A DNA stretch of 64,000 nucleotides. It comes from a virus. Its lineage: Duplodnaviria > Caudoviricetes. The translations under genes were made by a program, and so were the position numbers. The stretch is from IMG/VR virus record IMGVR_UViG_3300032030_000028, positions 32,001 through 96,000 of that record; one strand, given 5' to 3'. The notes beneath the pieces are model-generated. The model was not told where the DNA came from. It made no database searches and was given only the letters and a program-made list of their open reading frames with translations. Shown piece after piece: positions 1-36,171 of this stretch. The stretch's first letter is position 1. Each line of letters begins with the position of its first letter.

Positions 1-20
1 TTCGAATCTGCCTCGGGATA
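1..20 (+). tRNA. 3' fragment of a tRNA (T-loop and acceptor strand), cut by window edge
   Basis: TTCGAAT T-loop followed by stem-like CTGCC-TCGGGAT-A at the head of the tRNA cluster. Confidence 0.6.
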
Positions 21-22
21 CT

Positions 23-310
23 AGTCAAGAATAGGTTACCACCGAGTAGTGTTCGGGGTAAATTGAATGGGGATGTATACTTAACCAGTCAATGTAGTCT
101 TGGGTGGTGTGACCCCCAGCCCGATGAAAGGTGTTGGTTATCGTGAGGTGCCATAAGGTGCAACGCAACAGGAGGTAAAACCGCGTGGTAATGCAATCCT
201 CGTAATGAGATCGCCCTATGTAATGGGTAATGGTGAGATCGCCCCATGTAATGGGTAGCGGGTTCAAAGCCGAGGTTTCTCCAGTCCGTAGCTCGTAAAT
301 TTTCTTGACT
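23..310 (+). ncRNA. Unknown structured RNA, ~290 nt
   Basis: Ends pair (AGTCAAGAA / TTCTTGACT); many internal hairpins; 24-nt near-perfect direct repeat at 206-229 and 234-257; lies between tRNAs; no credible ORF. Confidence 0.6.
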
Positions 311-318
311 TTCTATAT

Positions 319-397
319 TGTCTGATAGCTCAATGGCAAGGGAACAGAGCACCTCGGGAACATCGGGGCGACGGAGGTTCGATTCCTTCTCAGACAA
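319..397 (+). tRNA. tRNA-like RNA with non-canonical anticodon loop (GGAACAT) and enlarged D loop
   Basis: Acceptor TGTCTGA/TCAGACA, D stem GCTC/GAGC, stem CCTCG/CGGGG, T arm GGAGG-TTCGATT-CCTTC; no U33. Confidence 0.65.
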
Positions 398-400
398 CAA

Positions 401-816
401 ATAATATCAGTTAACAGTAGGCTTGAAAGCAGCCATCTGATAATGAGTTGCGAGAGGAAGTTTGCGTGGAAGTCATGACTCCGCAAGAGAACAAGGCGCA
501 TGTGAGTAACTTGGCAATATACATGTGAGAAACACCTCAGGAATAACAAAAATGGAAATCCCGAATGCAAAGAAGGTAGCATAGCTGAAATGCTATGTGA
601 GGTTCCAGTAGCGTGACGGTGTATAGAAGTGATGTAGTTAAGTTTTATGTAAGCCCCAACAGTACGAGAGGAACCTGGGGTTAATGGATGCCATTAAGGT
701 TTCTATGCCGTAAGTGATTCGGTAAAGAACGCGAGAAGTATCAAGTGAAGGCTCGCGGCCAAAAGCATAAAACAGTCCTCAGAGCATTTGGCGTGATAGC
801 ACATAATTGGTATTAT
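401..816 (+). ncRNA. Large structured RNA with LSU-rRNA mimic modules (H43/H44 L11-binding domain and sarcin-ricin loop)
   Basis: 13-bp terminal helix 401-413/804-816; GTAGGCTTGAAAGCAGCCATC (417-437) resembles H43; GGCGTGATAGCACA (790-803) resembles H44; AGTACGAGAGGAAC (661-674) is closed by AGCCCCA/TGGGGTT. Confidence 0.8.
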
Positions 817-818
817 AC

Positions 819-894
819 AGGGAAGTAGCTTAGCGGTCTAGAGCGACAATGGGTGCGACGCCCGGAAACATTGGTTCAAATCCAGTCTTCCCTG
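819..894 (+). tRNA. tRNA-like RNA whose anticodon arm is replaced by a tight hairpin (GGGTG-CGA-CGCCC)
   Basis: Acceptor AGGGAAG/CTTCCCT, D arm GCTT..GAGC, T arm ATTGG-TTCAAAT-CCAGT; no 7-nt anticodon loop. Confidence 0.6.
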
Positions 895-898
895 CTAT

Positions 899-981
899 GG
901 AGAGTAAACTCGGAAGGTCTGAGCGCTGTCTCGAAAACAGACGGAGTCTAACGACTTGGGGATCGAGACCTCAGTTCTCCG
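899..981 (+). tRNA. tRNA-Ser(CGA), atypical (8/4-family, ATCGAGA T-loop)
   Basis: GGAGAGT../..GTTCTCC-G, loop CT-CGA-AA, long variable arm, G73; 8th acceptor pair is an A-A mismatch. Confidence 0.8.
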
Positions 982-986
982 CAGAT

Positions 987-1073
987 GGAGAGCTAAGCCG
1001 GCGGGGCTGGCCGCTGTTTGGAAGACAGTCGGAGTCTGAAAGATGGCTTGGGGATCGACACCTCAGTTCTCCG
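987..1073 (+). tRNA. tRNA-Ser(GGA), 8/4 fold
   Basis: 8-bp acceptor GGAGAGCT/AGTTCTCC, 4-bp T stem GGGG/CCTC, loop TT-GGA-AG, long variable arm, G73. Confidence 0.85.
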
Positions 1074-1081
1074 CAAACAAT

Positions 1082-1165
1082 GGAGAATTAACTGCAGCGG
1101 CCTGCAGGCCGGTCTTGAAAACCGTGGGAGGGTAACACCTTGGGGATCGACACCTCAGTTCTCCG
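1082..1165 (+). tRNA. tRNA-Ser(TGA), 8/4 fold
   Basis: 8-bp acceptor GGAGAATT/AGTTCTCC, loop CT-TGA-AA, long variable arm, G73. Confidence 0.85.
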
Positions 1166-1169
1166 CAAA

Positions 1170-1300
1170 GGCTTCAGTAATGAAGTTAGGTGTCCTTGGG
1201 AGGCTTAATTACCCTCCGACCGTGTGGAAACCCCACTATAGCGTACCGAGGATCGTGGGCACCCTCCGTCAGTGTAGTAGCGCTGTAAACTGACGGAGAT
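1170..1300 (+). ncRNA. Unknown structured RNA (multibranch domain plus long hairpin)
   Basis: GGTGTCC/GGGCACC and CCTTGG/CCGAGG enclose two hairpins; then a CTCCGTCAGT/ACTGACGGAG stem. Confidence 0.45.
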
Positions 1301-1340
1301 ATCCAAGCAAATAATCAGCACGAAAGTGCGTCAACATATC

Positions 1341-1432
1341 AGGTGTGTGCTGGAATTGGTAGACAGCTGAAGGAGGTTAGATCCTCACAGGGTGATAATG
1401 TAACCGTACAGATTCAAATCCTGTCGCACCTG
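1341..1432 (+). tRNA. Degenerate class-II tRNA-like RNA (Leu-type D arm, distorted anticodon arm containing TAG)
   Basis: Acceptor AGGTGTG/CGCACCT, D arm CTG-GAATTGGTAGA-CAG, T-loop TTCAAAT; irregular anticodon arm. Confidence 0.5.
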
Positions 1433-1444
1433 CAACACATAATT

Positions 1445-1518
1445 GGACCTATAGTCCCAGTGGTCTAGGATGCCTGACTGTCTATCAGGAGGCCCGGGTT
1501 CAAGTCCCTCCTAGCCCA
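1445..1518 (+). pseudogene. Chimeric tRNA-Asp(GTC) with a 3' end from another tRNA
   Basis: Normal D and anticodon arms (CCTGA-CTGTCTA-TCAGG), but 3' strand CCCTC-CTAGCCC-A does not pair with 5' GGACCTA. Confidence 0.6.
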
Positions 1519-1637
1519 CTATGAGGAGTGTACATAAACCTCAGACGTGCGCCTATGGCTCGCAAAAACATAGGTAGTTATCCGTTTATAGGTAAAACGG
1601 CGGACGGAAGCGGCCCAACCGTAAGAGGCCGCAATAT

Positions 1638-1709
1638 GGTGATATTAGTGTAATGGTAACACGAGACACTGTGGATGTCTTATTATCGGTTCAAATCCGG
1701 TATATCACC
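1638..1709 (+). tRNA. tRNA-His(GTG)
   Basis: G-1:C73, canonical cloverleaf, loop CT-GTG-GA. Confidence 0.93.
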
Positions 1710-1714
1710 CTAAA

Positions 1715-1870
1715 GGATTGGTTGATCCGAGGTTCAAGAAGGCCCCCGTAAGATGGCTAGTCGTTGGGGCAATGCTTGAGATGGATACCGCGAAGGGACA
1801 GCCATAAGTCTTGAAGTACGGTTAGATGCGGAGCTGGTGAAAGTCCAGACTATGTAGGACAATCCAATCT
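1715..1870 (+). ncRNA. Unknown structured RNA with potential pseudoknot
   Basis: Ends pair GGATTGG-TTG/CAA-T-CCAATCT; TTCAAGA/TCTTGAA; loop ATGGCT complementary to downstream AGCCAT; CTGG-TGAAAGT-CCAG hairpin. Confidence 0.55.
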
Positions 1871-1872
1871 AT

Positions 1873-1946
1873 AGCCCGGTAGCCCAACCGGCAGAGGCAA
1901 CAGATTCAAAACCTGTATAGTGTGAGTTCGAATCTCACTCGGGCTA
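1873..1946 (+). tRNA. tRNA-Leu(CAA), short-variable-loop type
   Basis: Acceptor AGCCCGG/TCGGGCT, loop TT-CAA-AA, T arm GTGAG-TTCGAAT-CTCAC, A73. Confidence 0.85.
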
Positions 1947-1954
1947 CAAAAAAA

Positions 1955-2070
1955 ATGGAACAATAGAGTAGAGAATCGGTCTGTGAGAATAAATTGCCTG
2001 CGCAGAATCCCATTCTATTCTTAAGGAAAAGGTATATTGTGGCAATTCTGATACCGAAGTACTGTTCCAT
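1955..2070 (+). ncRNA. Unknown structured RNA (long interrupted rod)
   Basis: Nested pairings ATGGAACA/TGTTCCAT, TCGGT/ACCGA, AATTGCC/GGCAATT. Confidence 0.5.
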
Positions 2071-2074
2071 TTAA

Positions 2075-2198
2075 CGGGGTATGGTCGAATTGGTAGAGAT
2101 ACCCGGTATGGACCGGGAGGTTTGTGAATAATTCCATGGTGAATAGCAAACAGAGATTCTTCGGAATCCGAATGGTGGTTCGAGTCCACCTACCCCGA
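2075..2198 (+). tRNA. tRNA-Pro-like RNA with ~55-nt two-hairpin insertion in the variable region
   Basis: Acceptor CGGGGTA/TACCCCG-A (C1:G72, A73); arm CCCGG-TATGGA-CCGGG; extra hairpins including GATTC-TTCG-GAATC; perfect T arm GGTGG-TTCGAGT-CCACC. Confidence 0.65.
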
Positions 2199-2200
2199 CA

Positions 2201-2327
2201 ATCGTTATCTAGTATCCGGCAACCTATATGAGCCGGGAATTCGAGAATATCTCGTTAATAGGCCAAGGCCATGCCCCTTGCTAGTGGGGGTTGGAGTCCA
2301 CACAGAAATGTGGGAATCACTAGCGAT
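2201..2327 (+). ncRNA. Unknown multi-hairpin RNA
   Basis: Ends pair ATCGTTA/TAGCGAT; internal hairpins CCGGC/GCCGG, CGAGA/TCTCG, CCCC/GGGG, CCACA/TGTGG. Confidence 0.45.
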
Positions 2328-2330
2328 AAT

Positions 2331-2404
2331 GTCGGTATAGCGGAGCTGGTTTCTTGCGCCTCTCTCATAAGGAGGAGACGGTGGTTCGAGTCCACCTACC
2401 GGCA
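2331..2404 (+). tRNA. tRNA(CAT), Met or Ile2
   Basis: Acceptor GTCGGTA/TACCGGC, loop CT-CAT-AA, canonical T arm. Confidence 0.88.
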
Positions 2405-2424
2405 CTCATAAAAATGTTATAATT

Positions 2425-2805
2425 ATGGAAAAGAAGATAAAGGATCGCAGATATACAATTCTCGGAATTCACCGGAACGGCACATTATACGGATGGGCCG
2501 AAAATTCATTTTCATTCTCCCCCTCCGAGGACTACACTAGGGTTTGGGGTGCTGAATACAAAGAATGCGGCAATCGTCAATATTGGAAACCTAACAAAAA
2601 TCAATCCACTTGGAATTATCTCAAGAAGGTGGCGGACGATCTGACCGCAAAGAAGTATATGGGGTGTGTATGGAAAGTGTATAGGGTCGGTAGTAAGCAC
2701 TGTCCGGTCGATATAGACTTCAGAACCTGCGATCTGATGAAAACCGGAAAAATAAAATACGACAAATATCAGGCGAGAAACCACAAATTCACGTCGAAAC
2801 AATAA
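2425..2805 (+). CDS. Hypothetical protein inside the RNA island
   Basis: 126-aa ORF with A-rich upstream, fills the gap between RNA genes. Confidence 0.75.
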   Translation: MEKKIKDRRYTILGIHRNGTLYGWAENSFSFSPSEDYTRVWGAEYKECGNRQYWKPNKNQSTWNYLKKVADDLTAKKYMGCVWKVYRVGSKHCPVDIDFRTCDLMKTGKIKYDKYQARNHKFTSKQ

Positions 2806-3068
2806 CGGGCGACCCGGATAATGGGGACTGAACAGGCGGGTTAGCTACCGCTTACGCAGCGGCGCTTCTGAGACGGATCTCAGAGACAAGCCGTAAAGTG
2901 CGGAACCGAAAGTCCAATGAGCTGTAGACAATCGGCACAAGCACCAGAACTCAGGCGAAGACAGTTGCAATAGAGCTCAATAAAGAGCTGCCAAGTCTGA
3001 GTCATTCTCTGACTGGACAGGCCAGTCCAAGAAGAAGCGTTCAGGAGGTTCGACTCCTCCTCGCCCGA
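2806..3068 (+). ncRNA. tmRNA-like RNA: tRNA acceptor and T arm closing a ~220-nt structured insert
   Basis: CGGGCGA/TCGCCCG-A acceptor, GGAGG-TTCGACT-CCTCC T arm, TGAAC/GTTCA connecting helix; no G3.U70. Confidence 0.7.
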
Positions 3069-3075
3069 CTAAGTT

Positions 3076-3159
3076 GGCCGAGTGGTGGAATTGGTAGACA
3101 CGTCAGACTTAAAATCTGGTGCCCGTAAGGGCGTGCGGGTTCAAGTCCCGCTTCGGCTA
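3076..3159 (+). tRNA. tRNA-Leu(TAA)
   Basis: Canonical class-II cloverleaf, loop CT-TAA-AA. Confidence 0.95.
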
Positions 3160-3232
3160 CAAACAATGGATATTTGGAGTGAAATTGTTAAAACGTTGTG
3201 ATTCACTCATGGAAATATTCTAACAACGTTAC

Positions 3233-3305
3233 GCGTCAGTAGCTCAGCAGGTAGAGCACATCCCTTTTAAGGATGGGGTCCCGGGTTCGAGCCCCGGTTG
3301 ACGCA
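3233..3305 (+). tRNA. tRNA-Lys(TTT)
   Basis: Canonical cloverleaf, CATCC-CTTTTAA-GGATG. Confidence 0.95.
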
Positions 3306-3314
3306 CTTATAAAA

Positions 3315-3397
3315 GGAGAGCTAAATCGGCGGGGCCGATCGCTGTTTGGAAGACAGTTGGAAGATGACGCTTTGGGGATCGAGACCTCAGTTCTCCG
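3315..3397 (+). tRNA. tRNA-Ser(GGA), 8/4 fold, second copy
   Basis: GGAGAGCT/AGTTCTCC, loop TT-GGA-AG, T-loop ATCGAGA. Confidence 0.85.
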
Positions 3398-3402
3398 CAC
3401 AA

Positions 3403-3475
3403 GCCCTTGTAGCTCAATTGGTAGAGCAACGCACCTGTAATGCGAAGGTTGCTGGTTCAATTCCGGTCAGGGGCT
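3403..3475 (+). tRNA. tRNA-Thr(TGT) with C33
   Basis: Cloverleaf GCCCTTG/CAGGGGC, loop CC-TGT-AA. Confidence 0.8.
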
Positions 3476-3492
3476 CTTATTATAATTATATT

Positions 3493-3568
3493 GGGAGTTT
3501 AGCTCAGCTGGTTCAGTAGCGTCTGCCTTACAAGCAGAAGGTCGTTGGTTCGAATCCAACAACTCCCA
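3493..3568 (+). tRNA. tRNA-Val(TAC)
   Basis: Canonical cloverleaf, TCTGC-CTTACAA-GCAGA. Confidence 0.93.
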
Positions 3569-3571
3569 CAA

Positions 3572-3862
3572 AGCTGGTATCGATGACGCTCTGGTGAAAG
3601 GATGTTTGGACGAGGGGTTCGATTCCCTCTACCTCCACTATTTCTCAGCTGACCAACCATGATGTTGGAACAGTTACGGTGGCGGAAACTTAACATGAGA
3701 TCCGTCACTTGCTTATGGGGGTAATTGGTTTTGACAGCATTTGAGTAAGAAGAGAAGAGATGCTGGTAAGTGAGAATAAATCACAACACAACTTTTCGTC
3801 TTGCCGCTTAATCTCTAGGAGATTTAGCAGTAAGGGTCCGGGCGGAACCAAATCCGCCCTTT
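3572..3862 (+). ncRNA. ssrA: Circularly permuted (two-piece) tmRNA; outer ends approximate
   Basis: T arm and TACCTCC-A acceptor strand (to 3637) precede the 5' end GGGGGTA-ATTGGTTTTGAC (3717); G3.U70 present; tag frame HNTTFRLAA-stop at 3782-3811. Confidence 0.88.
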
Positions 3863-3864
3863 AT

Positions 3865-3937
3865 GCTCTTATAGCTCAATGGATTAGAGCACGGGCCTCC
3901 GGAGCCCGGAATCCGGGTTCGAATCCCGGTAGGGGCT
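3865..3937 (+). tRNA. tRNA-Arg(CCG)
   Basis: Canonical cloverleaf, CGGGC-CTCCGGA-GCCCG. Confidence 0.93.
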
Positions 3938-3965
3938 CGAAAAATATCTATGATCTTTCCTATAT

Positions 3966-4038
3966 GCCCCGATAGCTTAATTGGAAAAGCAGTACCCTTC
4001 TAAGGTATGGAGTGGGGGTTCGAATCCCTCTCGGGGTA
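3966..4038 (+). tRNA. tRNA-Arg(TCT)
   Basis: Canonical cloverleaf, GTACC-CTTCTAA-GGTAT. Confidence 0.93.
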
Positions 4039-4055
4039 CAAAATTAAGAATTATT

Positions 4056-4340
4056 ATGACCGATCAAGAATTGTCTAGATATATCGAGATATTCGCTCTC
4101 ACTCATCCGGAATATGAGATGGATGAGGTTTGTCCTATTCCAAAGAAAGATCTTAAAGTGGGACATATATATTTAGGAGATTGTCGCAATGCAGATAAAG
4201 CAGTCTGGATTGGTGAGAAGTTTGAATATCAAAGAGATAAATTTGGAAGCACCCTCTTAGAATATATCAACCATTATGAAGATGATGACGGTTATGACGT
4301 ATTTGTTCCATTTGTAGATATTTCGAAATTTTCTTCTTAA
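4056..4340 (+). CDS. Hypothetical phage protein
   Basis: ORF 3981..4340 restarted at the first ATG after tRNA-Arg (MTDQELS...). Confidence 0.75.
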   Translation: MTDQELSRYIEIFALTHPEYEMDEVCPIPKKDLKVGHIYLGDCRNADKAVWIGEKFEYQRDKFGSTLLEYINHYEDDDGYDVFVPFVDISKFSS

Positions 4341-26489: not shown

Positions 26490-28535
26490 ATGTGGAGTAA
26501 TAAAATATACGATCATGGCATAGACACCCAGCCATTTAAAAGCATCTTGCCGTACGATCGGGTAGATATAGATAATGATGTAGTAAATGACATGAACTAT
26601 TATCGTCATTGGGGAATATTCGGTCTTAAAGACGAACCTTCCTTGATGGTGTGGACTCGTATGACGAATGGAAAATTAGAATATTATATTCCGGCGCATA
26701 AAGATATCAATGATCAGATGATTCCGGAAGTAAAAAATATTCCGGAAGATCAGGTATATTACACGGATAAAAGAAACCCGCGCATAGGCACCAAATCATT
26801 ATTTAATAATGTTAATGCAGTAGCATTTCAACCCGAATATGCTGTGCATGCCAATGCTCCCTTGATTGATTCTAGAGAAGTCCGTAAAAGAATGCGAGAT
26901 TTAGGAGATTGCTCTATTAAAGCTCTTGTCAATGCTTCCCAGGAGGGACGCATGGGGCGGGCGGTATATGATTATAACGACTTTATGTTCTGCAAATATC
27001 TGGGGCAAGTTTCTAATAACTATCTAATAACATTAAGAAGATTTCCATTTCCTGCGGGTGATAATATCAATCTAGTTTTACATGGGGAAGATGCGAATGA
27101 GATCACTACTCAAAAACATATGCCGGACGTCGGTCGATTGGTGACATGGATGGGAACTCCAGGTAATGATCTGGAAAATATATTAAAATATAAGGTTTTG
27201 ATGCCGTATAAGGAACTCACCTCTACTATAGAGCAAACCAGTGGTGGGGGTGAAGGCGGTGGAATTATGGGTACTATTACAAACTTGACTAGCCCAGCAT
27301 ACGCTCATAATGTTTATCTAGGACGTGCCGGATCGGGGTCTATAGCTCATTTACAAGCATTGACCCAAACTCGTCTCGGTGGCATGATGGGAATGGGAAG
27401 AATTGGTAATTTATTGCAAGGACCTCGAGATGAAGGAGCTTCCGGGCATATGGATCGAACTAAAAACTATGGACCCGTAGATGTTATTGCTAAAACTCAT
27501 ATTCGCGAAGGTGGAGAAGATGGAGGATTGCGTTTCGAACAAGATATTAATTTAACGTTTGATTATGAGTTGAGATCGTATGATAATATCAACACAAGGG
27601 CGGCTTTTTTGGATTTACTAGCTAATATATTAGCCGTGACCTATGTAGACGGCCGGTTCTGGGGAGGTGCTTACATGGGGACTGGTGTATCTCAGAATAA
27701 ATTGTTTTCAAACCTCCCTATATATAATCTAAAACAACCCTTTAATTTTGGAGACATATATAATGCCGGAGTAGCTTCATTAAAAATGATTGCGACGGAA
27801 TTAAATGGCGGCAAGCCTATAACAGGTACTAAAGATATCGTGAATGCGGTAGTTCAATTAGGTAAAAATATGCTCACGGTAGTTGCTGGTGGCTTGCTGA
27901 ACGGACTAGGTCGTCCGCAAAGACAGGCAGTTAATTCGTTGTTGACTAACGCCCCGGTAGGTCTTTGGCATCTTACCATAGGCAATCCAAAACATCCTAT
28001 CATGTCTATGGGAAATATGATTCTTGATGATGTTAATATTCAACATTACGGGAGGCTAGGTTTAGATGATTTCCCGGTCGGGTTGAGAGTCAGCATTACC
28101 TTAAAACATGGCATGCCCCGGGATGCTAAAGGCATTGAGCATATGTATATGATGGGAGATTCTCGAATATATCAGCATATGGATGAAGATCTGCTTTATA
28201 TGTACGAAGAAGCTCAATCTTTAGATACTAAACCTAAAAATAAAAAAGGCGGCGGTAATTCCGGCAAAGTGAAAAATTCAATGAAAAGCCTGAAAGAAGT
28301 AAACGATACTATAGGGACGTATGCCGGAAGAATTGCTAGAATGGTTACCGATATCCTACACGGCAACCCTAATGCCGACGTTGATACGATTGAAAAATCT
28401 ATAATGAATAGGTTAGGTCAAGTTCAGGGATTTGCTCGAATAGTCAAGCAGTTTGGCACCAATTCACTCCGGCAGATCATTATAGCTGCTAAAGAAAGCT
28501 ATAAGGGTAACGATAAAATATCTAAAAATTCGTAG
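26490..28535 (+). CDS. Putative tail/baseplate structural protein
   Basis: 681-aa ORF heading an operon with gp15-like and gp5-like genes. Confidence 0.55.
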   Translation: MWSNKIYDHGIDTQPFKSILPYDRVDIDNDVVNDMNYYRHWGIFGLKDEPSLMVWTRMTNGKLEYYIPAHKDINDQMIPEVKNIPEDQVYYTDKRNPRIGTKSLFNNVNAVAFQPEYAVHANAPLIDSREVRKRMRDLGDCSIKALVNASQEGRMGRAVYDYNDFMFCKYLGQVSNNYLITLRRFPFPAGDNINLVLHGEDANEITTQKHMPDVGRLVTWMGTPGNDLENILKYKVLMPYKELTSTIEQTSGGGEGGGIMGTITNLTSPAYAHNVYLGRAGSGSIAHLQALTQTRLGGMMGMGRIGNLLQGPRDEGASGHMDRTKNYGPVDVIAKTHIREGGEDGGLRFEQDINLTFDYELRSYDNINTRAAFLDLLANILAVTYVDGRFWGGAYMGTGVSQNKLFSNLPIYNLKQPFNFGDIYNAGVASLKMIATELNGGKPITGTKDIVNAVVQLGKNMLTVVAGGLLNGLGRPQRQAVNSLLTNAPVGLWHLTIGNPKHPIMSMGNMILDDVNIQHYGRLGLDDFPVGLRVSITLKHGMPRDAKGIEHMYMMGDSRIYQHMDEDLLYMYEEAQSLDTKPKNKKGGGNSGKVKNSMKSLKEVNDTIGTYAGRIARMVTDILHGNPNADVDTIEKSIMNRLGQVQGFARIVKQFGTNSLRQIIIAAKESYKGNDKISKNS

Positions 28536-28578
28536 TAAGAAATACAATATAAATTAGTATAATATATAAAAACAACAT

Positions 28579-31500
28579 ATGAATTCAATTACCGAATGTT
28601 TAAAACAGATAACCTCCCTGACTAAGAAAAATCTTCAATTATTGAAGATGATCAATGATTCCTTTTATACTAGAAAAAATCATCTGGTATCTATAGTCGA
28701 TGGGGAGCAATACGTAGTTCCGTCTTTCTTGTCTTTAGAAAGCAAGATTGATAATCTGGAAGCTAATTTACAAAATATTTTAGATGCTCCAAAAACAGGA
28801 GAGGCTTTTACTTATTTCGATGGCACTACTCAGAGAATAGAGCTATCCGGATATTCTAATACACCACCGAAAACGAATCTCATACCACCGAATTCATTCG
28901 TTTCATCTATCAATCATATTTTTAAAGATTTTATGTCTCCCCAACCTACGGTTCGATTCGATATCGGGGGTATTTCTAATACAATCAAACACGTATTAGT
29001 TAAAAAGGTATCTATTCGCAATCCTATTTTGTTAGGGTTGGTTTTAGATAATGTAGTATCCGGGGAATCGGATATTTCCGAAGATGGAACTAAAAAGCGC
29101 GGGTCTATAGAATATGGTGATCTTGTCAAAACTTTATTTAATTATGAAAATGGAGTAGAATATGAAGATTATGACACAATAAAAAGACTGCCTTTAAGAA
29201 TGGATAATCCTACCGGCGAATACGATATTTTAGAAATTGTAGATACTTGGCAGGATGAGAATTTTGAAGAGCATTATATTCTCCGATTAGATAAAGATTT
29301 GATATATTATGTGCGAAATGGTACTATTCAAAAAAATATCATGATAGGAGACTACTTAGTCAGCTATAATGACAAAGTAGAGATGATCGTGGAAGATACG
29401 AATCCCGTAAATAGAACTATTACGGTTAAGATACTACACGGTGCATATGCTGAACTTTGCGATGTTCTTTCCGGAAATACTGATCTATATAGGCTTAAAT
29501 ATCATAAAGTTAATGATGAAGTATTTTCGGCGACAAAATATGTCGAAGTCCCATTGGAGGAAGATGAACACGTATGTATATTTATCGCGCCGATTAACGA
29601 TACCACTAACACACAAGCCGCTTTCGGCACTGGGGCTTATTTATATACAGATTATCTTGAAGATGAATCGGGAAATGATTTCCGAACATATTATACGGAT
29701 AATGTAAATAATATTGGAGATGCCTTATTCGCTATCACTAATATGATGAACGACGACGATCAAGTGGAAAAACTTACCGGATCAGAATTTCTAGCGCTTT
29801 CTGCCGTTAAGCCGGTATTGGGGACGGAAAGTATTACCGTATATCAGATCAACAAACACCTGAATGATTCGGAGAGCGTCAAAAAAATACGTAATTTATA
29901 CAATCAAAAAGTTCATTATAAAAACGAATTATCCGATATTGAAAAGAAAATTGATGATATTAATAATATTTTAGCGGACTCATCTTTTGATGATACCGAC
30001 GAAACCAGAGAGGCTTACAAATCTCAGCTTCGGGAATTGAATGCTCAAAGAAAGGAGCTTGCCCAAAACGTCACTTCCGTCATCCAAGAGATTTCCGAGA
30101 ACGCCAATTCTTCAGACACTCCTATTGAAAATGCTAAATACCACATCCGCGGGTTTGTGGACACCGGTAATTTTGATAACGCCTCCGTTATAGGTTTGGA
30201 TGTAGAATACAGATATAAAAACAAAAACAAATTTACGGGCAATGCCGAAACAATCGGTGAATCTTATATTTACTCTGATTGGAATAAAATGGATTCGTTT
30301 ATGAATGTAAAAACTCCAGCATATGATCCCATTACCGGTAAATATTCGTATAAATGGGGGGACCACAATGAATCTATGAATGAGCCTTCTTTTAATCAAA
30401 TAGATATCCCCATATCTCAAGGCGAAAATGTAGATATCCGGGTTCGATTCATTTATAATTTGGGCTGGCCATTGATTACTTTCCGTTCGGATTGGTCCGA
30501 AATATTAAATGTAGATTTTCCCGAAGAATTTGTCAAAGATATAGAAATACTGGATATCATAGAAGAGAATAACTCGGATATCAAACAACAACAATTTATT
30601 GGAATTCTAGAAAAAGAAGGAATTTTAGACCATGTATATGATAAAATCAGAGACATGGATCTTACATATTTTCATCAGCCGGAACATATCGCCAGTGGAT
30701 TTTATACGCCCGAACGCCGGATAATTCCGCTTTCAGACCAATTAGCGACTATGGCCCGAGCACTATCCGATTTGCAGACGGAAGTTAATGGAGCTACCGC
30801 ACAATTAGTGTTAACCTTATCGGATGGGATCCAAGAATCAACACTGTTGCCCGGAATAATGAATAACTTTAGAGTCCGGTCTTATGTCGATGCTGTCAAC
30901 GAGGGCGATTATCAAACTATGAAATTTGTTCGTGATCCTTTACATCCCGACGAAACATTAGACGCACCCCTGGCCGTATCTAATTTGGTTATTAATATCT
31001 ATAATCCATCTGAATACGTTATTAAACTACATTCTTTATTCCCGGGAGACAATTCCACAATATTGGATGATTCTCTCTCTTCTAATAGGTTCGGATATTT
31101 GAATTATGTCGGTGGCGGATATTGTACAACCGAAAACACCGATCCAAAATCTTCTAATATCGGAGGATATAATTATGATCCGTCCGCGGGTGTATGGATG
31201 ATGATGTCCGATATCGATAACCCTAACCAACAAAGGATTCTTCAAAGACAAAATCAATTTTTATATTTCAGAACGGTAGTGGATGGTAAATCTTTATATA
31301 CCGTAGGGTTATATGATGGGAACTCGTTTAATAACACTAGACAATCCGTATCGGACGATAACTTCAATGGCAAGTTCCCGGAAAATCTATTGTCCGCCAG
31401 AAACAACAATATACTCGAATTAGAAGATTATTTATATTATATGTACGATAGTTCCGATGTTTTATATAAAGGAATCGCCGGTTTATATCCAAGTATTGGA

Positions 31501-31866
31501 GGCATAGAAGAAATATGTGCCCCCACCGGATCTAGTTTTTATGAATTAAAACCCGGAGAATCCGTACAAATTCCTTTGAATTTCGCTTATTGGATTTCTA
31601 ACAATAAGAGTTCATCTATCCAATCCGCCGGAGATCTTTCTTCTAATGTAGAGGCGAAAATGAAACCCTATATTAACAAAATATCCCGAGCAATTGCATT
31701 TGATATCCGGACATCTTTATTTACGGACCCGGTAACTTATAAAATCACGGTATCCGCACATTACCAAGACCTGCAGACATTCAAATCTACTAGAGTTAAT
31801 AAACAATCCGTAAAAAAACAATATTCCCCCACTACTGTGGTAACCCAACTTAAAATCGGCAAATAG
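28579..31866 (+). CDS. Large putative virion structural protein with central coiled coil
   Basis: 1095-aa ORF; context only. Confidence 0.6.
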   Translation: MNSITECLKQITSLTKKNLQLLKMINDSFYTRKNHLVSIVDGEQYVVPSFLSLESKIDNLEANLQNILDAPKTGEAFTYFDGTTQRIELSGYSNTPPKTNLIPPNSFVSSINHIFKDFMSPQPTVRFDIGGISNTIKHVLVKKVSIRNPILLGLVLDNVVSGESDISEDGTKKRGSIEYGDLVKTLFNYENGVEYEDYDTIKRLPLRMDNPTGEYDILEIVDTWQDENFEEHYILRLDKDLIYYVRNGTIQKNIMIGDYLVSYNDKVEMIVEDTNPVNRTITVKILHGAYAELCDVLSGNTDLYRLKYHKVNDEVFSATKYVEVPLEEDEHVCIFIAPINDTTNTQAAFGTGAYLYTDYLEDESGNDFRTYYTDNVNNIGDALFAITNMMNDDDQVEKLTGSEFLALSAVKPVLGTESITVYQINKHLNDSESVKKIRNLYNQKVHYKNELSDIEKKIDDINNILADSSFDDTDETREAYKSQLRELNAQRKELAQNVTSVIQEISENANSSDTPIENAKYHIRGFVDTGNFDNASVIGLDVEYRYKNKNKFTGNAETIGESYIYSDWNKMDSFMNVKTPAYDPITGKYSYKWGDHNESMNEPSFNQIDIPISQGENVDIRVRFIYNLGWPLITFRSDWSEILNVDFPEEFVKDIEILDIIEENNSDIKQQQFIGILEKEGILDHVYDKIRDMDLTYFHQPEHIASGFYTPERRIIPLSDQLATMARALSDLQTEVNGATAQLVLTLSDGIQESTLLPGIMNNFRVRSYVDAVNEGDYQTMKFVRDPLHPDETLDAPLAVSNLVINIYNPSEYVIKLHSLFPGDNSTILDDSLSSNRFGYLNYVGGGYCTTENTDPKSSNIGGYNYDPSAGVWMMMSDIDNPNQQRILQRQNQFLYFRTVVDGKSLYTVGLYDGNSFNNTRQSVSDDNFNGKFPENLLSARNNNILELEDYLYYMYDSSDVLYKGIAGLYPSIGGIEEICAPTGSSFYELKPGESVQIPLNFAYWISNNKSSSIQSAGDLSSNVEAKMKPYINKISRAIAFDIRTSLFTDPVTYKITVSAHYQDLQTFKSTRVNKQSVKKQYSPTTVVTQLKIGK

Positions 31867-31868
31867 AT

Positions 31869-32765
31869 ATGATGACGCAAGAAGAAAAAGATATTATATA
31901 TAAAATTCGCAAAGGAGAGATAGATGTGAATAACCAACAGATATTCCTATCTCTCCTCATAAAGGGTTTGATATGGAATCTTAATCAGCATATTAAAATC
32001 CGAGATATAGATGTACCACATTTTATCATCAATACCGGTGATGATATTATGTACTTAGAAGTCAAAGGCCAGGATCATTCTATAGAACCATTGGAGGTCT
32101 CTAATGAGAGCTTTGTATATAATACGGTCCCTAGATGCCTAGTCACCCCGGAAGGTATATCCATCCCTACCGATGACTTATCCTCTCCATACTCTAATGG
32201 TATGTTCCAATATGAATCCGAAGATGATATATACAGCTACACGGCGGAATTCCGGAGATTACCTATGGAAATAACAGTATCTTTGAAATATTATTTTGAT
32301 TCATATACGGATTCTTTGGAAGGCATCCAACAAATCCTGACACATTGTGCGTTTATCAACATATTTGACATACAATATTTAGGCCAGACCATCCGATCCA
32401 GCTATCAAATATCGGACCAATATGAATCCCAATTCCAAGTAGAATTCGATGGTTTAAGCCAAGATAATAAATGCCGGGTAGTAGAAACGGACATTACCAT
32501 AGATACTAATATGCCGATTATATACCCAAGAACCGCCATTTTAGGAGACCGATTTATCAAAACCGCGATACATGAATTAAAAGTGTCCGATAAAGACGAG
32601 ATCCAAAAGCGGTATATTCGTCAAATGGACGTATGCAATATTTGCAAAAACAAATATCGGACGGCGCTTCAAGGCGAAAACTATGTATGCCCAACATATC
32701 TCTCATATAGAGATTCGGAAATTGAGATTCCGGAAGATAATTGCCCGGATTTTGAAGGTTTCTAA
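31869..32765 (+). CDS. Tail terminator/sheath stabiliser, T4 gp15-like
   Basis: RRLPMEITVSLKYYFDSYTDSLEGIQQIL resembles the gp15 core. Confidence 0.55.
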   Translation: MMTQEEKDIIYKIRKGEIDVNNQQIFLSLLIKGLIWNLNQHIKIRDIDVPHFIINTGDDIMYLEVKGQDHSIEPLEVSNESFVYNTVPRCLVTPEGISIPTDDLSSPYSNGMFQYESEDDIYSYTAEFRRLPMEITVSLKYYFDSYTDSLEGIQQILTHCAFINIFDIQYLGQTIRSSYQISDQYESQFQVEFDGLSQDNKCRVVETDITIDTNMPIIYPRTAILGDRFIKTAIHELKVSDKDEIQKRYIRQMDVCNICKNKYRTALQGENYVCPTYLSYRDSEIEIPEDNCPDFEGF

Positions 32766-32800
32766 TTTCAAAAATATGTCTAAAAGAAAAATAAAAATTT

Positions 32801-33493
32801 ATGAAACTAAGATTTGGAGAATTACGGCCAGGAAAAGTGCTGCGCGTCGAAGACGCTTATGGCACCATCAAAGGAAGTTGTCTCGGGATGTTTGCTGAAA
32901 CCGAAGATCCGGATAACCTGCCCCCCATGTTTCCGAATCCATTAGGACAAACTTCTTCGACTTCTTTCTGCCAACCTCATGAAGGGGATCTTATTTGGGT
33001 AATGTCTTTCTCGGACAATCCATGGGCTTTATATTATTCATTCCAAAACAGCGCAGGGCATCATAATAAAGAAATTTTAGATAAGAACTATAAAGATGCG
33101 GAAATTCTTCTGAGACGGAAAAATGAATCCGGAGAAGATGCTACGATGGAATATAATAGCGAGGATGGATCCGTTGTTCGAAACGGCAAAGCGGTATACC
33201 AAGCTGACCAAAAAGGTAATCTCCATATGGAGAGAGACGGAGACCATAGAACTATAGAAATTAATGAAACCGGAATATCTATAGGGAGTTCCGAAAAAAG
33301 CGATCAACCCGCAGTTTTGGGTGATGCCTGTGAATCCGCTTTTAAGGGTATTTATAAATGTCTAGCTCAAATCGCGGAAGTGTGCCGGGAAAATACTTAT
33401 ACCGCAGCCATCGCTCCAGCCATAGAAAATGTATTACCCGAAATCAGAAGTCATATAGAGCAAATAAAATCGGAATACGTAACATTAGATTGA
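32801..33493 (+). CDS. Baseplate spike, gp5/GpV OB-fold-like
   Basis: GKVLRVED...QPHEGDLIWVMS OB-fold pattern followed by beta repeats. Confidence 0.65.
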   Translation: MKLRFGELRPGKVLRVEDAYGTIKGSCLGMFAETEDPDNLPPMFPNPLGQTSSTSFCQPHEGDLIWVMSFSDNPWALYYSFQNSAGHHNKEILDKNYKDAEILLRRKNESGEDATMEYNSEDGSVVRNGKAVYQADQKGNLHMERDGDHRTIEINETGISIGSSEKSDQPAVLGDACESAFKGIYKCLAQIAEVCRENTYTAAIAPAIENVLPEIRSHIEQIKSEYVTLD

Positions 33494-33495
33494 TT

Positions 33496-34335
33496 ATGGA
33501 AAATAATATGATAGATAAATCCATAGCGGTAGCGGAAAATCTAAGTGAAGATGTTATAAAAACCGCTATGAGCACCCTTAGCGGAGCCGCCGGGAAGATC
33601 AGTGATAAGCTTCATTCGATTCTGGATACGCTACAGGAATTTAAAAATTATAAACCCAAAGATCCATTTGAAGAAGAGGATAAGAAAATGGGATTATTGC
33701 CCGAAGAAACTCCTTCCGAAGAAACTCCTTCCGAAGAAACTGCTCCGTCTAAAACCAAAAAACTCAAAGAAAAATTTATGCAGGGGGTGAAAAATATCAT
33801 CCCCGGATTAGATATTGATACTGTTTTAGATAAATTGGCTTCCAAATGCAAACCATTACAAGCCGCTATGGGGCCTATTAAAGATTCGATTTATCATATT
33901 AAGGAAAACAAACGATTATCTCCCGAAGAGAAAGCCACCCGCATTCAAACATTGCGGGAACAAAGACAAAAACAGATAGACGATTGGAAAAAATCACAAA
34001 AAGATTATGTTTCGCACATTATAGATGATATTAAAGCCGATTTTGATGAAATTAAATTCGGAGTAGAAAATTTAACGGCAACAGTTCCCATCGTCTCATC
34101 CCAATTAGCATTACCTACATTTATAGGCACCGGAAGCCCCAATCCTGCTAGGGTAGCGGCAGACTTCTTGGCAACAAAACGCATGCTTATGAGTATGGTT
34201 CATCCATTGCAAACAGCCGCCCGTAAATTTTTAGATAATTGCGACAGAATAGATTTTGATATACCTGAACCGGTATTGGATATATTAGAGGGTATTGCTA
34301 GCCTTGAATATCTAATTAGTAAACTTCCCGGATAA
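33496..34335 (+). CDS. Hypothetical protein
   Basis: ORF 33358..34335 restarted at the ATG after the upstream stop; short EETPS repeat. Confidence 0.7.
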   Translation: MENNMIDKSIAVAENLSEDVIKTAMSTLSGAAGKISDKLHSILDTLQEFKNYKPKDPFEEEDKKMGLLPEETPSEETPSEETAPSKTKKLKEKFMQGVKNIIPGLDIDTVLDKLASKCKPLQAAMGPIKDSIYHIKENKRLSPEEKATRIQTLREQRQKQIDDWKKSQKDYVSHIIDDIKADFDEIKFGVENLTATVPIVSSQLALPTFIGTGSPNPARVAADFLATKRMLMSMVHPLQTAARKFLDNCDRIDFDIPEPVLDILEGIASLEYLISKLPG

Positions 34336-34366
34336 TAATTAAAATAAAGCGCAAAAACATATCAAA

Positions 34367-34423
34367 AACAAGCGATCGTATCTTAGATGACTAGTTATAT
34401 CACTTAAGGTACGATCGCTTGTT
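34367..34423 (+). repeat. Dispersed palindromic element, copy 3
   Basis: Near-identical to copy 2; between convergent genes. Confidence 0.85.
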
Positions 34424-34444
34424 ATATCGCAGATATGCGAGTTT

Positions 34445-35026
34445 TTACTTAGGAAGTTTATTTTGGGGCAGTGCTTTATTGATCTCCGTTCTCTTAACGG
34501 CCAATCCCATCCTTGTGGCGATATCTATAGTTTCGTCATCCATATCGGCTTTGGGATTATCCGGATTATATGGGGCTAATAGATTATTAGTGTCTAAGAA
34601 ACCATAAAACAATCCTTCTACATGCCGATCAAAAGATTTTTGAAAAATATCATACGCATATTTAAGTTCTATATATTTAGATGGAGTACATATCACTACC
34701 ATATTAGATCCTCTCGGACGAGAATAATCCGTGATCTTCCGTATCTTCTTCGCATATTTATCTTGAGCATCATTGCCAAAATATGTCATCCTGTCTACAT
34801 TGCAGTATATGATAGCCACTTGCCGGAAAAGATCCCGACATTTATAACCGGATATCTTGAAAAAGTAGACCTGTTCTTTTTCATCATACAAGTCTTCTTC
34901 CGTGATCCCATATTTTTGCATTAATGAATTCAACAAGGATTCCGCCGAGATTTTTTCACCACCTTCACCCTGTTCGGCAAGAGCCCTGACTTTGTTGATT
35001 TTATTAATGATATCGTCTTTTGTCAT
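34445..35026 (-). CDS. DUF2786-like protein
   Basis: INKINKVRALAEQG..GE...A..LL..LMQKYGI N-terminus. Confidence 0.7.
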   Translation of the reverse strand: MTKDDIINKINKVRALAEQGEGGEKISAESLLNSLMQKYGITEEDLYDEKEQVYFFKISGYKCRDLFRQVAIIYCNVDRMTYFGNDAQDKYAKKIRKITDYSRPRGSNMVVICTPSKYIELKYAYDIFQKSFDRHVEGLFYGFLDTNNLLAPYNPDNPKADMDDETIDIATRMGLAVKRTEINKALPQNKLPK

Positions 35027-35231
35027 TGTTTCTGTAATAAGTTATTTTTTCCCCGTTTCTGATCCGGATAAACACATGAGCTAAAATATATCCTATAGCA
35101 AATCCACCAAAGATGGCTGCTATCATAGATACGGTAGTATTAGGGAATATTTTAGAACAGAAAAATCCCCAAGTACCACCAATTACAATCAAAATCATGA
35201 TTTCAATAAAGTTTCTGACAGATTCTTTCAT
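35004..35231 (-). CDS. Small membrane protein with two hydrophobic helices
   Basis: 75 aa, two hydrophobic segments. Confidence 0.65.
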   Translation of the reverse strand: MKESVRNFIEIMILIVIGGTWGFFCSKIFPNTTVSMIAAIFGGFAIGYILAHVFIRIRNGEKITYYRNNDKRRYH

Positions 35232-35251
35232 ATGCTTTTTAATTTAAGGGT

Positions 35252-35497
35252 TTATACTAAATTTAATCTTATACCTATATATACTCTAATTCCATCAAAG
35301 TTTGCACGAATATCATAATCGCTGCTTGCTGGGATACACCCTATACAATTAAGAAATTCTTGAAGGACATCCTCAGGATAATTAGTCAGAGGAATTAAAT
35401 CAGCCGCGCTAATATTATCCCTACCTTTTTCCGCAAGGTTAGCAAAAGCATCTATAAGGATATCTACATCCTTGAGTGTATATTTTGGATTAGGCAT
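35252..35497 (-). CDS. Hypothetical protein
   Basis: ORF 35252..35569; probable start MPNPKY overlapping the upstream stop. Confidence 0.55.
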   Translation of the reverse strand: MPNPKYTLKDVDILIDAFANLAEKGRDNISAADLIPLTNYPEDVLQEFLNCIGCIPASSDYDIRANFDGIRVYIGIRLNLV

Positions 35498-35771
35498 TGG
35501 AAAGGTCCCTCCCACAGACCGGACAATATTTAATAGGAATATACATATGGTGGACTTTCCGGCGATCATCTGCTATATAGATCTCAATAGTTGAAGTAAG
35601 TCCATCTTCTTCATGTTTATGTCTTGAGATTGGAGTTGGAGGAATGATGCTAGCCATAGTCTCAACATCCTCTCCGGAAAAATCTTGACTGGAATAATTA
35701 GTTTTGAGTAACTCTCTATATTTATGAGCACTCATCTTATCTCCCGTTAGAGCTTCACAATATTTACACAT
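35490..35771 (-). CDS. Small zinc-binding protein
   Basis: MCKYC ... IKYCPVCGR. Confidence 0.75.
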   Translation of the reverse strand: MCKYCEALTGDKMSAHKYRELLKTNYSSQDFSGEDVETMASIIPPTPISRHKHEEDGLTSTIEIYIADDRRKVHHMYIPIKYCPVCGRDLSNA

Positions 35772-36171
35772 ATCTTATATTTATACTGTTAGACAAATAC
35801 GTTTCAAAAAACTTTAGTTTTTCTTGTGCTATCTCTTCGGTTTCACAGTTGATAGTTAATTTATCACCATCCAGAAAATGCACTACCACTTTAGCATCCT
35901 CCCAGATATACCCTTCTTCATCAAACCGGCGCTCCTCAATGTCTCTGTACTTTATAGCTTCTTCTTTCGTATATAATTCTTCCCGAAACATACTGCCGCA
36001 GTACCCATACATATCTTCTTCATAGACCTTTTTGGTAGTTTTTTCACCACCAAACCATGTGAGTTTTACAATAGGTTCTCCTTTCTTATGAAGAAGCTGA
36101 AACGATTCCCATTTTTGCTTAGGAATATACCGCACATGACTTAATTTTTCGAATAAGATCTTTTCTCCCAT
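35764..36171 (-). CDS. Hypothetical protein
   Basis: 135-aa ORF. Confidence 0.7.
   Translation of the reverse strand: MGEKILFEKLSHVRYIPKQKWESFQLLHKKGEPIVKLTWFGGEKTTKKVYEEDMYGYCGSMFREELYTKEEAIKYRDIEERRFDEEGYIWEDAKVVVHFLDGDKLTINCETEEIAQEKLKFFETYLSNSINIRYV

Follow-up and report, generated by a model that had tools for sequence, protein, structure and literature searches.

Structured RNA cassettes between the tRNA genes of a rumen phage, with a candidate mimic of the ribosomal factor-binding site

The transfer RNA (tRNA) island of a rumen phage, IMG/VR record IMGVR_UViG_3300032030_000028, carries compact structured units in the gaps between its tRNA genes. The stretch analysed here, referred to as the window, is 64,000 nucleotides (nt) long and comprises bases 32,001-96,000 of this single 110,371-bp viral record (37.8% GC). 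Five such units, numbered 1 to 5, lie on the plus strand of the window at 23-310, 401-816, 1715-1870, 1955-2070 and 2201-2327, accompanied by two hairpin-cluster units at 1166-1342 and 1519-1638 on the same strand. Comparison with related viral sequences indicates that the units between the tRNAs are separate structured noncoding RNA genes that travel as cassettes within phage tRNA islands. Unit 2 very probably folds as a copy of the GTPase-associated centre (helices H42-H44) of 23S ribosomal RNA (rRNA), and it includes a hairpin with the sequence of the sarcin-ricin loop. For the array as a whole we lean towards an explanation in which tRNAs punctuate the RNA cassettes and unit 2 serves as a decoy of a ribosomal site. 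The novel features are an RNA, encoded in trans, that copies an entire functional centre of the ribosome, the dense packing of distinct units, with one to each tRNA gap, and two or three classes of RNA that have neither a model nor a description.

Closed RNA units as exchangeable cassettes

Minimum-free-energy folding paired the two ends of each numbered unit. In unit 1, 23-31 pairs with 302-310 (9 bp); in unit 2, 401-413 pairs with 804-816 (13 bp, including two G.U pairs). Unit 3 is closed by 1715-1721 with 1864-1870, and 1726-1728 pairs with an inner partner. Unit 4 is closed by 1953-1962 with 2063-2072, and unit 5 by 2201-2213 with 2315-2327. Gaps between the units and the neighbouring tRNA or tRNA-like genes measure 1-8 nt. 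An initial annotation, made from the letters of the window, had described five spacers with base-paired ends separated from the tRNAs by a few bases, and both descriptions agree with the sequence and the folds. It had also called the spacers GC-enriched, which is accurate for the others (0.43-0.50, versus 0.378 for the genome) but not for unit 4 (0.35).

The z scores of the folds against dinucleotide shuffles were -1.8 for 23-310, -2.4 for 401-816, -2.8 for 1166-1342, -1.4 for 1519-1638, -1.3 for 1711-1872, -3.4 for 1948-2074 and -2.4 for 2199-2330. Five coding controls gave -1.2 to +0.6. The units thus span -1.3 to -3.4. Single scores are modest and the thermodynamics no more than suggestive, so the case is built on covariation in relatives. 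In Rfam 15, which includes ROOL, GOLLD, skipping-rope, YrlA and introns, no unit was matched at the gathering threshold or at E<=5. The proposal that these are discrete structured RNAs rather than junk spacers was borne out by conservation and covariation in relatives, and we have little doubt that the units are real structured RNA genes.

The closest relative, L002 (an IMG/VR contig of 115 kb that also appears as L038 and L018), retains 1166-1342, 1519-1638, 1715-1870 and 2201-2327 at ~80-94% identity, with several of the intervening tRNAs exchanged for different ones. Exactly the tRNA-like gene at 319-397 plus unit 2 are absent from it, as is exactly unit 4 (alignment A1). A 361-kb contig (L049) shares units 1, 2 and 3 and carries them in another order (2, 1, 3), among other tRNAs. 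Contigs from rumen DNA and RNA runs have joints at 316>820, 312>1718, 2405>38 and 1166>1336, all at unit borders; at the last of these, other rumen variants lack precisely unit 1166-1342. Each of the five units occurs once in the 110-kb genome, and units 2-5 had no copy in the unrelated loci then fetched. The picture of one fixed array, as initially drawn, did not hold: the units appear to be independently shuffled cassettes, and some family members stand alone with a terminator of their own. The island would be a mosaic of exchangeable RNA genes, not of tRNAs alone.

Fourteen distinct members of unit 1 were obtained from one metagenome scan and from viral loci. Their consensus has five helices and 32 pairs, 16 of them with compensatory change, and 96.4% of cells are paired versus 86.4% in shuffles. 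Slid controls, in which partners were moved by 1-3 columns, gave only 1-4 covarying pairs. In the closing stem eight of nine pairs covary; several loops are invariant, including UAUCGUGAGGU; the segment GCAACGCAACAG is likewise invariant. The class is ~200 nt long. The window copy contains a lineage-specific insert of ~110 nt (at about 172-281) with tandem hairpins that occur in no other member; several members have shorter inserts at this place, and a short form without the insert was found in RNA and DNA runs (joint 171>282). In members L253 and L262 the unit is followed not by a tRNA but by a stem-loop and U-tract, which we read as a terminator. Comparison of unit 1 with rRNA gave nothing convincing, and no Rfam family corresponds to it.

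Unit 3 belongs to a class of ~155 nt with four members: the window copy, L038:6591-6754 in the closest relative, L049:1351-1501 and L121. Compensatory change is seen in 7 of its 41 consensus pairs, and the closing stems differ in sequence among members with complementarity kept. When viral contigs were scanned with an exact 23-mer of unit 3 and a pattern of unit 1, only close relatives were returned. Units 1 and 3 thus represent two new RNA classes.

For the smaller units the comparison involves fewer sequences. Unit 1166-1342, a discrete cassette, is 79% identical to its one relative; 37 columns differ, and the changes comprise five that are compensatory, five that are one-sided and none that breaks a pair. 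Unit 5, a closed multi-hairpin unit known from two sequences only, is 94% identical to its relative over 119 nt, with one compensatory change, three one-sided changes and no broken pair. The weakly supported unit 1519-1638 is 90% identical to its one relative, and of the 12 differences the two in paired columns keep pairing. Unit 4, an AT-rich closed hairpin unit, is known in this phage alone; its support consists of its z score of -3.4 and of run contigs (DNA and RNA). Several of the new classes have strong comparative support and are ready for studies of structure and binding.

Unit 2 and the GTPase-associated centre

Unit 2 had no Rfam match even at E<=10. A 16-mer around its sarcin-ricin-loop motif recovered two true homologues, L049:420-835 (91% identical) and L040, both adjoining tRNAs. 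A search with an 18-nt pattern of H43 returned 72 viral stretches, mostly on contigs of 60-435 kb, where a rough estimate predicts a handful. Together with the window these make 73, and 65 of them have the junction typical of the GTPase-associated centre; a same-strand tRNA lies near 43 of the 65 and is lacking near the other 22. We extracted 49 distinct full-length members of 107-467 nt, and the family also has forms of ~60 nt with little beyond the bare domain. Scanned with the H43 pattern, bacterial genomes returned genuine 23S genes for the most part and only a few mimics. The family is not modelled in Rfam 15 (scans of 12 loci gave only tRNAs and one ROOL), and no description of it was found in the literature searched.

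The part of unit 2 equivalent to 23S 1057-1090 lies at 415-448 and was located by local alignment to E. coli 23S 1059-1088. Its hairpin (415-439) has an 8-bp stem, the U1060.U1078 mismatch and a 9-nt loop, UUNRAAGYA, as in H43. Across the family the 1057-1081 equivalents are AU in 41 sequences and CG in 10, and those of 1058-1080 are UA in 25, AU in 16 and GC in 6; G1059-C1079 and 1062-1064/1074-1076 are unchanged. The lone pair 1082:1086 covaries (UA 10, AU 4, CG 4; alignment A5), and the window junction AUAAUG (440-445) places A and U at these positions. In the same alignment 1092-1099 also covaries (CG 9, UA 8). A base triple of 1072 with 1092-1099 reportedly exists in the rRNA domain and is said to have been described by Conn, Gutell and Draper in 1998. 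Among the 49 distinct members 1092-1099 changes in step with position 1072, the combinations being C with C-G (22), U with U-A (19), U with U-G (7) and, as the single exception, C with U-A (1); unit 2 has C with C-G.

A closing stem stands in for H42, and all 8 of its pairs covary in the family; its complementary run is 7.1 nt, compared with 4.3 nt for mismatched partners. In unit 2 the 5' strand of this H42-like stem is 401-413, and its 3' strand (804-816) comes after an H44-like hairpin at 790-802; the stretch 790-816 was assigned through the conserved 3' motif of the family, UGGYGUAAYAGCAC. The hexaloop of H44 reads GUAAYA in the family, GUGAUA in the window copy and GUGGCA in the nearest homologue. 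When the scaffold was aligned with the 23S of E. coli and rumen Bacteroidales, 92.2% of cells were paired versus 66.4% in shuffles, and its covariation score was 0.62 versus at most 0.13 in slid controls. Among 56 real rRNA loci compared with the units, the only similarities were the H43 match and the boxA described below.

The top local match to E. coli 23S was 1051-1088 in all 12 long members tested, and 9 of the 12 had a further match around 23S 2650-2669. In the window the 12-mer AGUACGAGAGGA at 661-672 is exactly 23S 2654-2665, with the bulged-G motif and the GAGA tetraloop. The hairpin in which it sits (654-680) has the AGUA/GAA sequence of the sarcin-ricin loop and a stem, 654-658/676-680, that covaries in the family. 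Hairpins with AGUACGAGAGGA or with GNRA-loop variants occur in a subclass of ~400 nt that includes the window copy, and at least nine different complementary stem sequences surround the motif in the family. Two long members, L092:2368-2745 and L073:8150-8535, have another match in E. coli 23S, to 2861-2887, which falls at an equivalent point of the insert in both and may represent one more element borrowed from rRNA.

Position 1067, the thiostrepton site, is G in every member of the family, but the search pattern demanded G there, so members with A1067 were not sampled. Real 23S genes with G1067 were seen in Nocardioides, Caldilineaceae, Wolbachia, Flagellimonas and rumen Bacteroidia (L124-L203). 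Position 1061 is A in 32 of 57 family sequences and also in a rumen Bacteroidales 23S gene. Since the real 23S of some bacteria, rumen Bacteroidales included, has both G1067 and A1061, the mimic resembles a host-type domain. A U1061A RNA has been used to stabilise tertiary structure (PMC1802607).

Upstream of the window, the spacer after tRNA-Phe (L001 3494-3580; genome 29,494-29,580) opens with a stretch that aligns best, within E. coli 23S, to 2080-2130, where the L1 stalk has its base (z = 2.4, a score reached by 7 of 300 shuffles). The close relative and metagenome locus L250 both keep this stretch, and a pattern search returned the close relative only. It may be a second mimic of an rRNA site. 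As far as we found, unit 2 would be the first trans-acting RNA that copies a ribosomal functional centre.

The tRNA island and its transcription

The island spans genome positions 28,281-36,039. ARAGORN, run on the whole contig, placed 24 tRNAs and one permuted transfer-messenger RNA (tmRNA) in it; the latter lies at window 3577-3811 (Rfam, 62 bits). The window opens with the 3' end of a tRNA-Leu(GAG) gene (1-21; genome 31947-32021 by ARAGORN), which begins before it. The other conventional genes that separate the units are tRNA-His(GTG) at 1639-1710, tRNA-Leu(CAA) at 1873-1947 and tRNA-Met(CAT) at 2331-2405, the last element of the array considered here.

The Rfam tRNA and tRNA-Sec models added tRNA-like genes missed by ARAGORN. 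These are at 319-397 (tRNA model, 40.4 bits), which has an atypical anticodon arm; at 819-894 (42.6 bits); at 1081-1165 (tRNA-Sec model, 43.8 bits); at 1445-1518 (tRNA model, 23.4 bits, below the gathering score of 29); and at 2075-2198 (37.1 bits), which has an insert of ~50 nt. The gene at 1081-1165 is the third of three tandem, non-canonical Ser-type copies and the only one that the model matched; the other two (898-985 and 986-1077), and the gene at 1343-1435, were identified by reading the sequence only. All of these genes are on the plus strand. This corrects the initial view of the spacers, several of which also contain tRNA-like genes. The island begins 3.7 kb upstream of the window.

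Four Ser-type tRNA-likes with a GAUCGA T-loop (898-1165 and 3312-3400) went unrecognised by ARAGORN, and their 3' half was found in 17 other large viral contigs. Alignment of 1343-1710 with the closest relative (A1) showed tRNA genes that are swapped or strongly diverged between well-conserved spacer units. Examples are tRNA-His and a tRNA-Ile(TAT) that replaces the two tRNA-likes of 1343-1518, with breakpoints in the T arm. Further along, window 2806-3070 encodes an RNA of 265 nt in which a tRNA-like acceptor and T arm enclose a large structured insert. The relative has it at 97.7% identity, its fold scores z = -3.4, and it lies 500 nt before the permuted tmRNA. One 126-amino-acid open reading frame (PHROG 15953, function unknown) occurs within the RNA island, at 2425-2805. 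Open reading frames listed inside the island look spurious: they are short, TTG is a frequent start codon, and many run along the minus strand through tRNA genes. Outside the window, L001 3340-3409 encodes a tRNA whose anticodon, CTA, would read TAG; despite it, the long open reading frames of the window are open in the standard code.

The record is ~49% complete (CheckV estimate) and encodes a large terminase and, outside the window at genome 1854-3038, an RtcB-type RNA ligase (199 bits). Sheep-gut and goat-gut runs yielded contigs that match parts of window 1-4100 at 99% identity or more. By blastn, tRNAs were the sole matches among GenBank phages, and E. coli genomes gave no match. Relatives of a neighbouring 383-amino-acid protein (L003-L016) had no tRNA island.

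A phage promoter-like element, CCTTAAG...TTATATAA, occurs in two copies, at genome 28,090-28,180 and 31,080-31,160 (L001 2090-2180 and 5080-5160). Each is followed by a boxA-like sequence, AGTTC(A/T)TTGACATATTGGAA(A)GATCATAGATA, at genome 28,14x and 31,127. The first promoter and boxA precede the first tRNA, and the second lie 0.9 kb upstream of the window; the promoter-like element without boxA precedes protein genes at genome 47-96 and 36,327-36,376. The boxA core is identical to sequence 130-190 nt upstream of 16S or 23S in seven loci, six of them from Bacteroidota, including Parapedobacter, and one labelled Clostridia. The match is 21 of 21 positions ~130 nt upstream of the Parapedobacter 23S. 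The boxA elements of rrn operons are located in that region, and the phage sequence, downstream of a promoter, is a candidate of this type. No plus-strand terminator-like site was found in L001 5127-9840, that is, none inside the array until the tmRNA.

The flanking tRNAs lack an encoded CCA. In tRNA maturation RNase Z cuts just behind a tRNA and RNase P just before the next one. We suggest that the units and tRNAs are transcribed together from the phage promoter, followed by a boxA antiterminator of the rRNA-operon type. RNase P would then cut at the 5' end of each downstream tRNA, and the 3' side of each CCA-less tRNA upstream would be freed by RNase Z or by trimming; each freed unit would keep a tail of a few nt at most, and its terminal helix would seal the ends. 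We consider co-transcription with release punctuated by tRNAs to be probable. The boxA suggests a way in which phage RNA arrays that are long and untranslated could avoid termination by Rho, and also that the host is one of the Bacteroidota. Sheep-gut metatranscriptome contigs cover units 1-5. Letters of Illumina adapters at unit 2 positions 417 and 784, in one run, were not read as RNA ends.

Possible functions and known systems

Because unit 2 combines a GTPase-associated centre with a sarcin-ricin loop, it would present, off the ribosome, the two RNA elements that are recognised by translation GTPases and by several RNA-targeting toxins. It could act as a decoy, binding proteins directed at the factor-binding site of the ribosome; the most likely candidates are toxins of defence systems or of competitors that cleave or modify the sarcin-ricin loop or H44. 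Toxins that ADP-ribosylate H44 of the GTPase-associated centre (PMC8661411) and toxins that cleave the sarcin-ricin loop (PMC5175351; bioRxiv 10.64898/2026.09.18.752725) have been described. Such a decoy would work alongside the large phage tRNA set, the tmRNA and the RtcB ligase. That toxins are the target, as opposed to uL11 or translation factors being titrated, is a tentative proposal that could well be wrong.

The idea can be extended to the island as a 'ribosome in pieces', a counter-defence kit in which free copies of toxin-attacked RNA sites absorb the effectors, and in this wider form we think it unlikely. The sites would be the H44 loop, the sarcin-ricin loop, tRNA anticodon arms (in the remodelled tRNA-likes) and perhaps the L1 stalk; the tmRNA and RtcB would rescue or repair what is still hit, and units 1 and 3 would be further decoys or cofactors. 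The many tRNAs, the tRNA-likes with altered anticodon arms, the two tmRNA-like genes and RtcB do fit a theme of RNA damage and rescue. Of the 'toolkit aimed at translation' that the initial annotation envisaged, unit 2, as a copy of the factor-binding site of 23S rRNA, and the nearby permuted tmRNA remain; as a general claim it is unsupported, as it cannot be extended to units 1, 3, 4 and 5. The mimic would offer a direct experimental handle on how phages protect or manipulate translation and on which host effectors target the ribosomal factor-binding site.

Several points weigh against the decoy and, in part, against the cassettes. The RNA runs are represented by contigs, which may contain DNA and show neither ends, strand nor expression level; stretches that they leave uncovered (e.g., 2741-3014 in the RNA runs) were not counted as evidence. 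On its own, unit 2 shows no significant similarity to E. coli 23S (z 1.3-1.4), and Smith-Waterman comparison of every spacer, unit 2 included, with E. coli 16S and 23S gave nothing significant versus shuffles; the link of unit 2 to rRNA is thus made through homology to its family members. Its H44 loop is GUGAUA, not GUAAYA, so that the base equivalent to A1095 is changed. The closest relative does without units 2 and 4, which makes both dispensable. Nothing links units 1 and 3 to translation, and units 4, 5 and 1519-1638 are known from one or two sequences. No uL11, bL12 or Ro60/TROVE-domain protein was found in the record, though with a record about half complete the absence of protein partners means little. 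The stand-alone members of the unit 2 family have no consistent protein neighbour that would hint at a partner.

The main rival to a decoy is titration of uL11, the stalk, EF-G or RelA. Here the family would consist of real copies of the GTPase-associated centre that bind host translation components rather than toxins, namely free uL11, uL10-bL12, EF-G or EF-Tu, or RelA. The result during infection would be retuned elongation, de-repressed ribosomal protein operons or a blunted stringent response. In support of titration, translation GTPases have a site made up jointly of the sarcin-ricin loop and the GTPase-associated centre (PMC8661411; PMC2896532), and none of the tertiary determinants of the uL11-binding fold is lost in the family. 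EF-G reportedly binds isolated oligonucleotides of both elements, a result said to be that of Munishkin and Wool in 1997. However, the free pools of abundant proteins would be hard to titrate with a single phage RNA, no stalk protein is encoded in the record, and the insert between H43 and H44, whose length in the family varies between 0 and about 400 nt, sits oddly with a fixed geometry for factor binding. We judge titration to be rather unlikely.

It is improbable that the units are passive spacers whose excised pieces have no function, whether as stems for processing of the RNase III type, known from rRNA operons, or as insulators of folding that aid the maturation of neighbouring tRNAs. 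Ends that pair and adjoin tRNAs, an rrn-like boxA in the island, and the loss of two units from a close relative that retains the flanking tRNAs would all be expected of such spacers. Invariance of internal loops across distant members would not, as seen for UAUCGUGAGGU and GCAACGCAACAG in unit 1, nor would the terminator-like structure that follows unit 1 in L253 and L262, the 22 of 65 family members of the GTPase-associated centre with no tRNA nearby, or the recurrence of one unit beside different tRNAs. More improbable still are selfish mobile elements between tRNA genes, whether MITE-like (miniature inverted-repeat transposable element) or degenerate introns, even though terminal inverted repeats, presence/absence polymorphism and shuffling between phages are all found here. 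The units are single-copy in the 110-kb genome, which argues against MITE-like repeats, and we rejected this class. Moreover, the stems covary for RNA pairing, with G.U pairs and a tertiary triple that a DNA repeat does not need, the five units have no Rfam match, intron families included, and the reading frames of the island have the spurious character noted above. Neither passive spacers nor selfish DNA accounts well for the conserved loops, for copies that stand alone or for covariation at the tertiary level.

The cassettes resemble several known systems in part. YrlA and the Y RNAs that work with Ro60 also have a closed terminal stem, a tRNA neighbourhood and a presence in phages; here, in contrast, the sole match to the YrlA model, upstream of the array, is weak (23.9 bits versus a gathering score of 69), and no TROVE-domain protein was found in the ~49% complete record. 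GOLLD and ROOL, the large ornate RNAs of phages and prophages that occur near tRNA islands, are established (PMC5737381, PMC12286853). With these the units share the niche, phage tRNA islands in the rumen, and probable co-transcription with tRNAs. They differ in matching neither model, in being smaller (116-416 nt) and in comprising several distinct units, one per tRNA gap, one of which is an rRNA copy. Both kinds of RNA were seen in one tRNA array, with ROOL (308 bits) at L089:2696-3274 and a mimic of the GTPase-associated centre at L089:7861-8026.

Leaders of ribosomal protein operons that mimic rRNA are likewise established. Like the L10 and L1 leaders, unit 2 is an extra-ribosomal RNA that copies an rRNA protein-binding site; the leaders act in cis, upstream of ribosomal protein genes, whereas the unit 2 family copies a whole tertiary domain and more than a minimal protein contact. 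A cis-regulatory leader was rejected for the window copy, which is flanked by tRNAs, and no ribosomal protein was present among ten neighbours of stand-alone family members. The adjacency of units and tRNAs, within 1-8 nt, recalls tRNA punctuation of mitochondrial transcripts and mascRNA, which is here predicted from sequence. The boxA-like sequence is identical to those of Bacteroidota rrn leaders and spacers, and antitermination as in rrn operons is predicted on the same grounds.

The closest likeness is to the ribosome itself. With the GTPase-associated centre of 23S rRNA (H43, H44 and the top of H42; E. coli 1051-1108), which contains the 58-60-nt domain that binds uL11 and thiostrepton, unit 2 shares the H43 stem and its 9-nt loop, and the family shares U1060/U1078, the 1082:1086 pair, the 1072/1092-1099 triple and the H44 hexaloop, with a closing helix that replaces H42. 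Unlike the 23S domain, the family members are not part of rRNA; they are free-standing phage genes of 60-467 nt, with an insertion at the 5' side of H44 that measures 0 to about 400 nt. With the sarcin-ricin loop (H95) unit 2 shares the identical 12-mer AGUACGAGAGGA on a covarying stem. It departs from H95 in its setting, since the hairpin sits inside the insert of the mimic of the GTPase-associated centre, and the family varies both the tetraloop (GGGA, GAAA) and the flanking non-canonical pairs.

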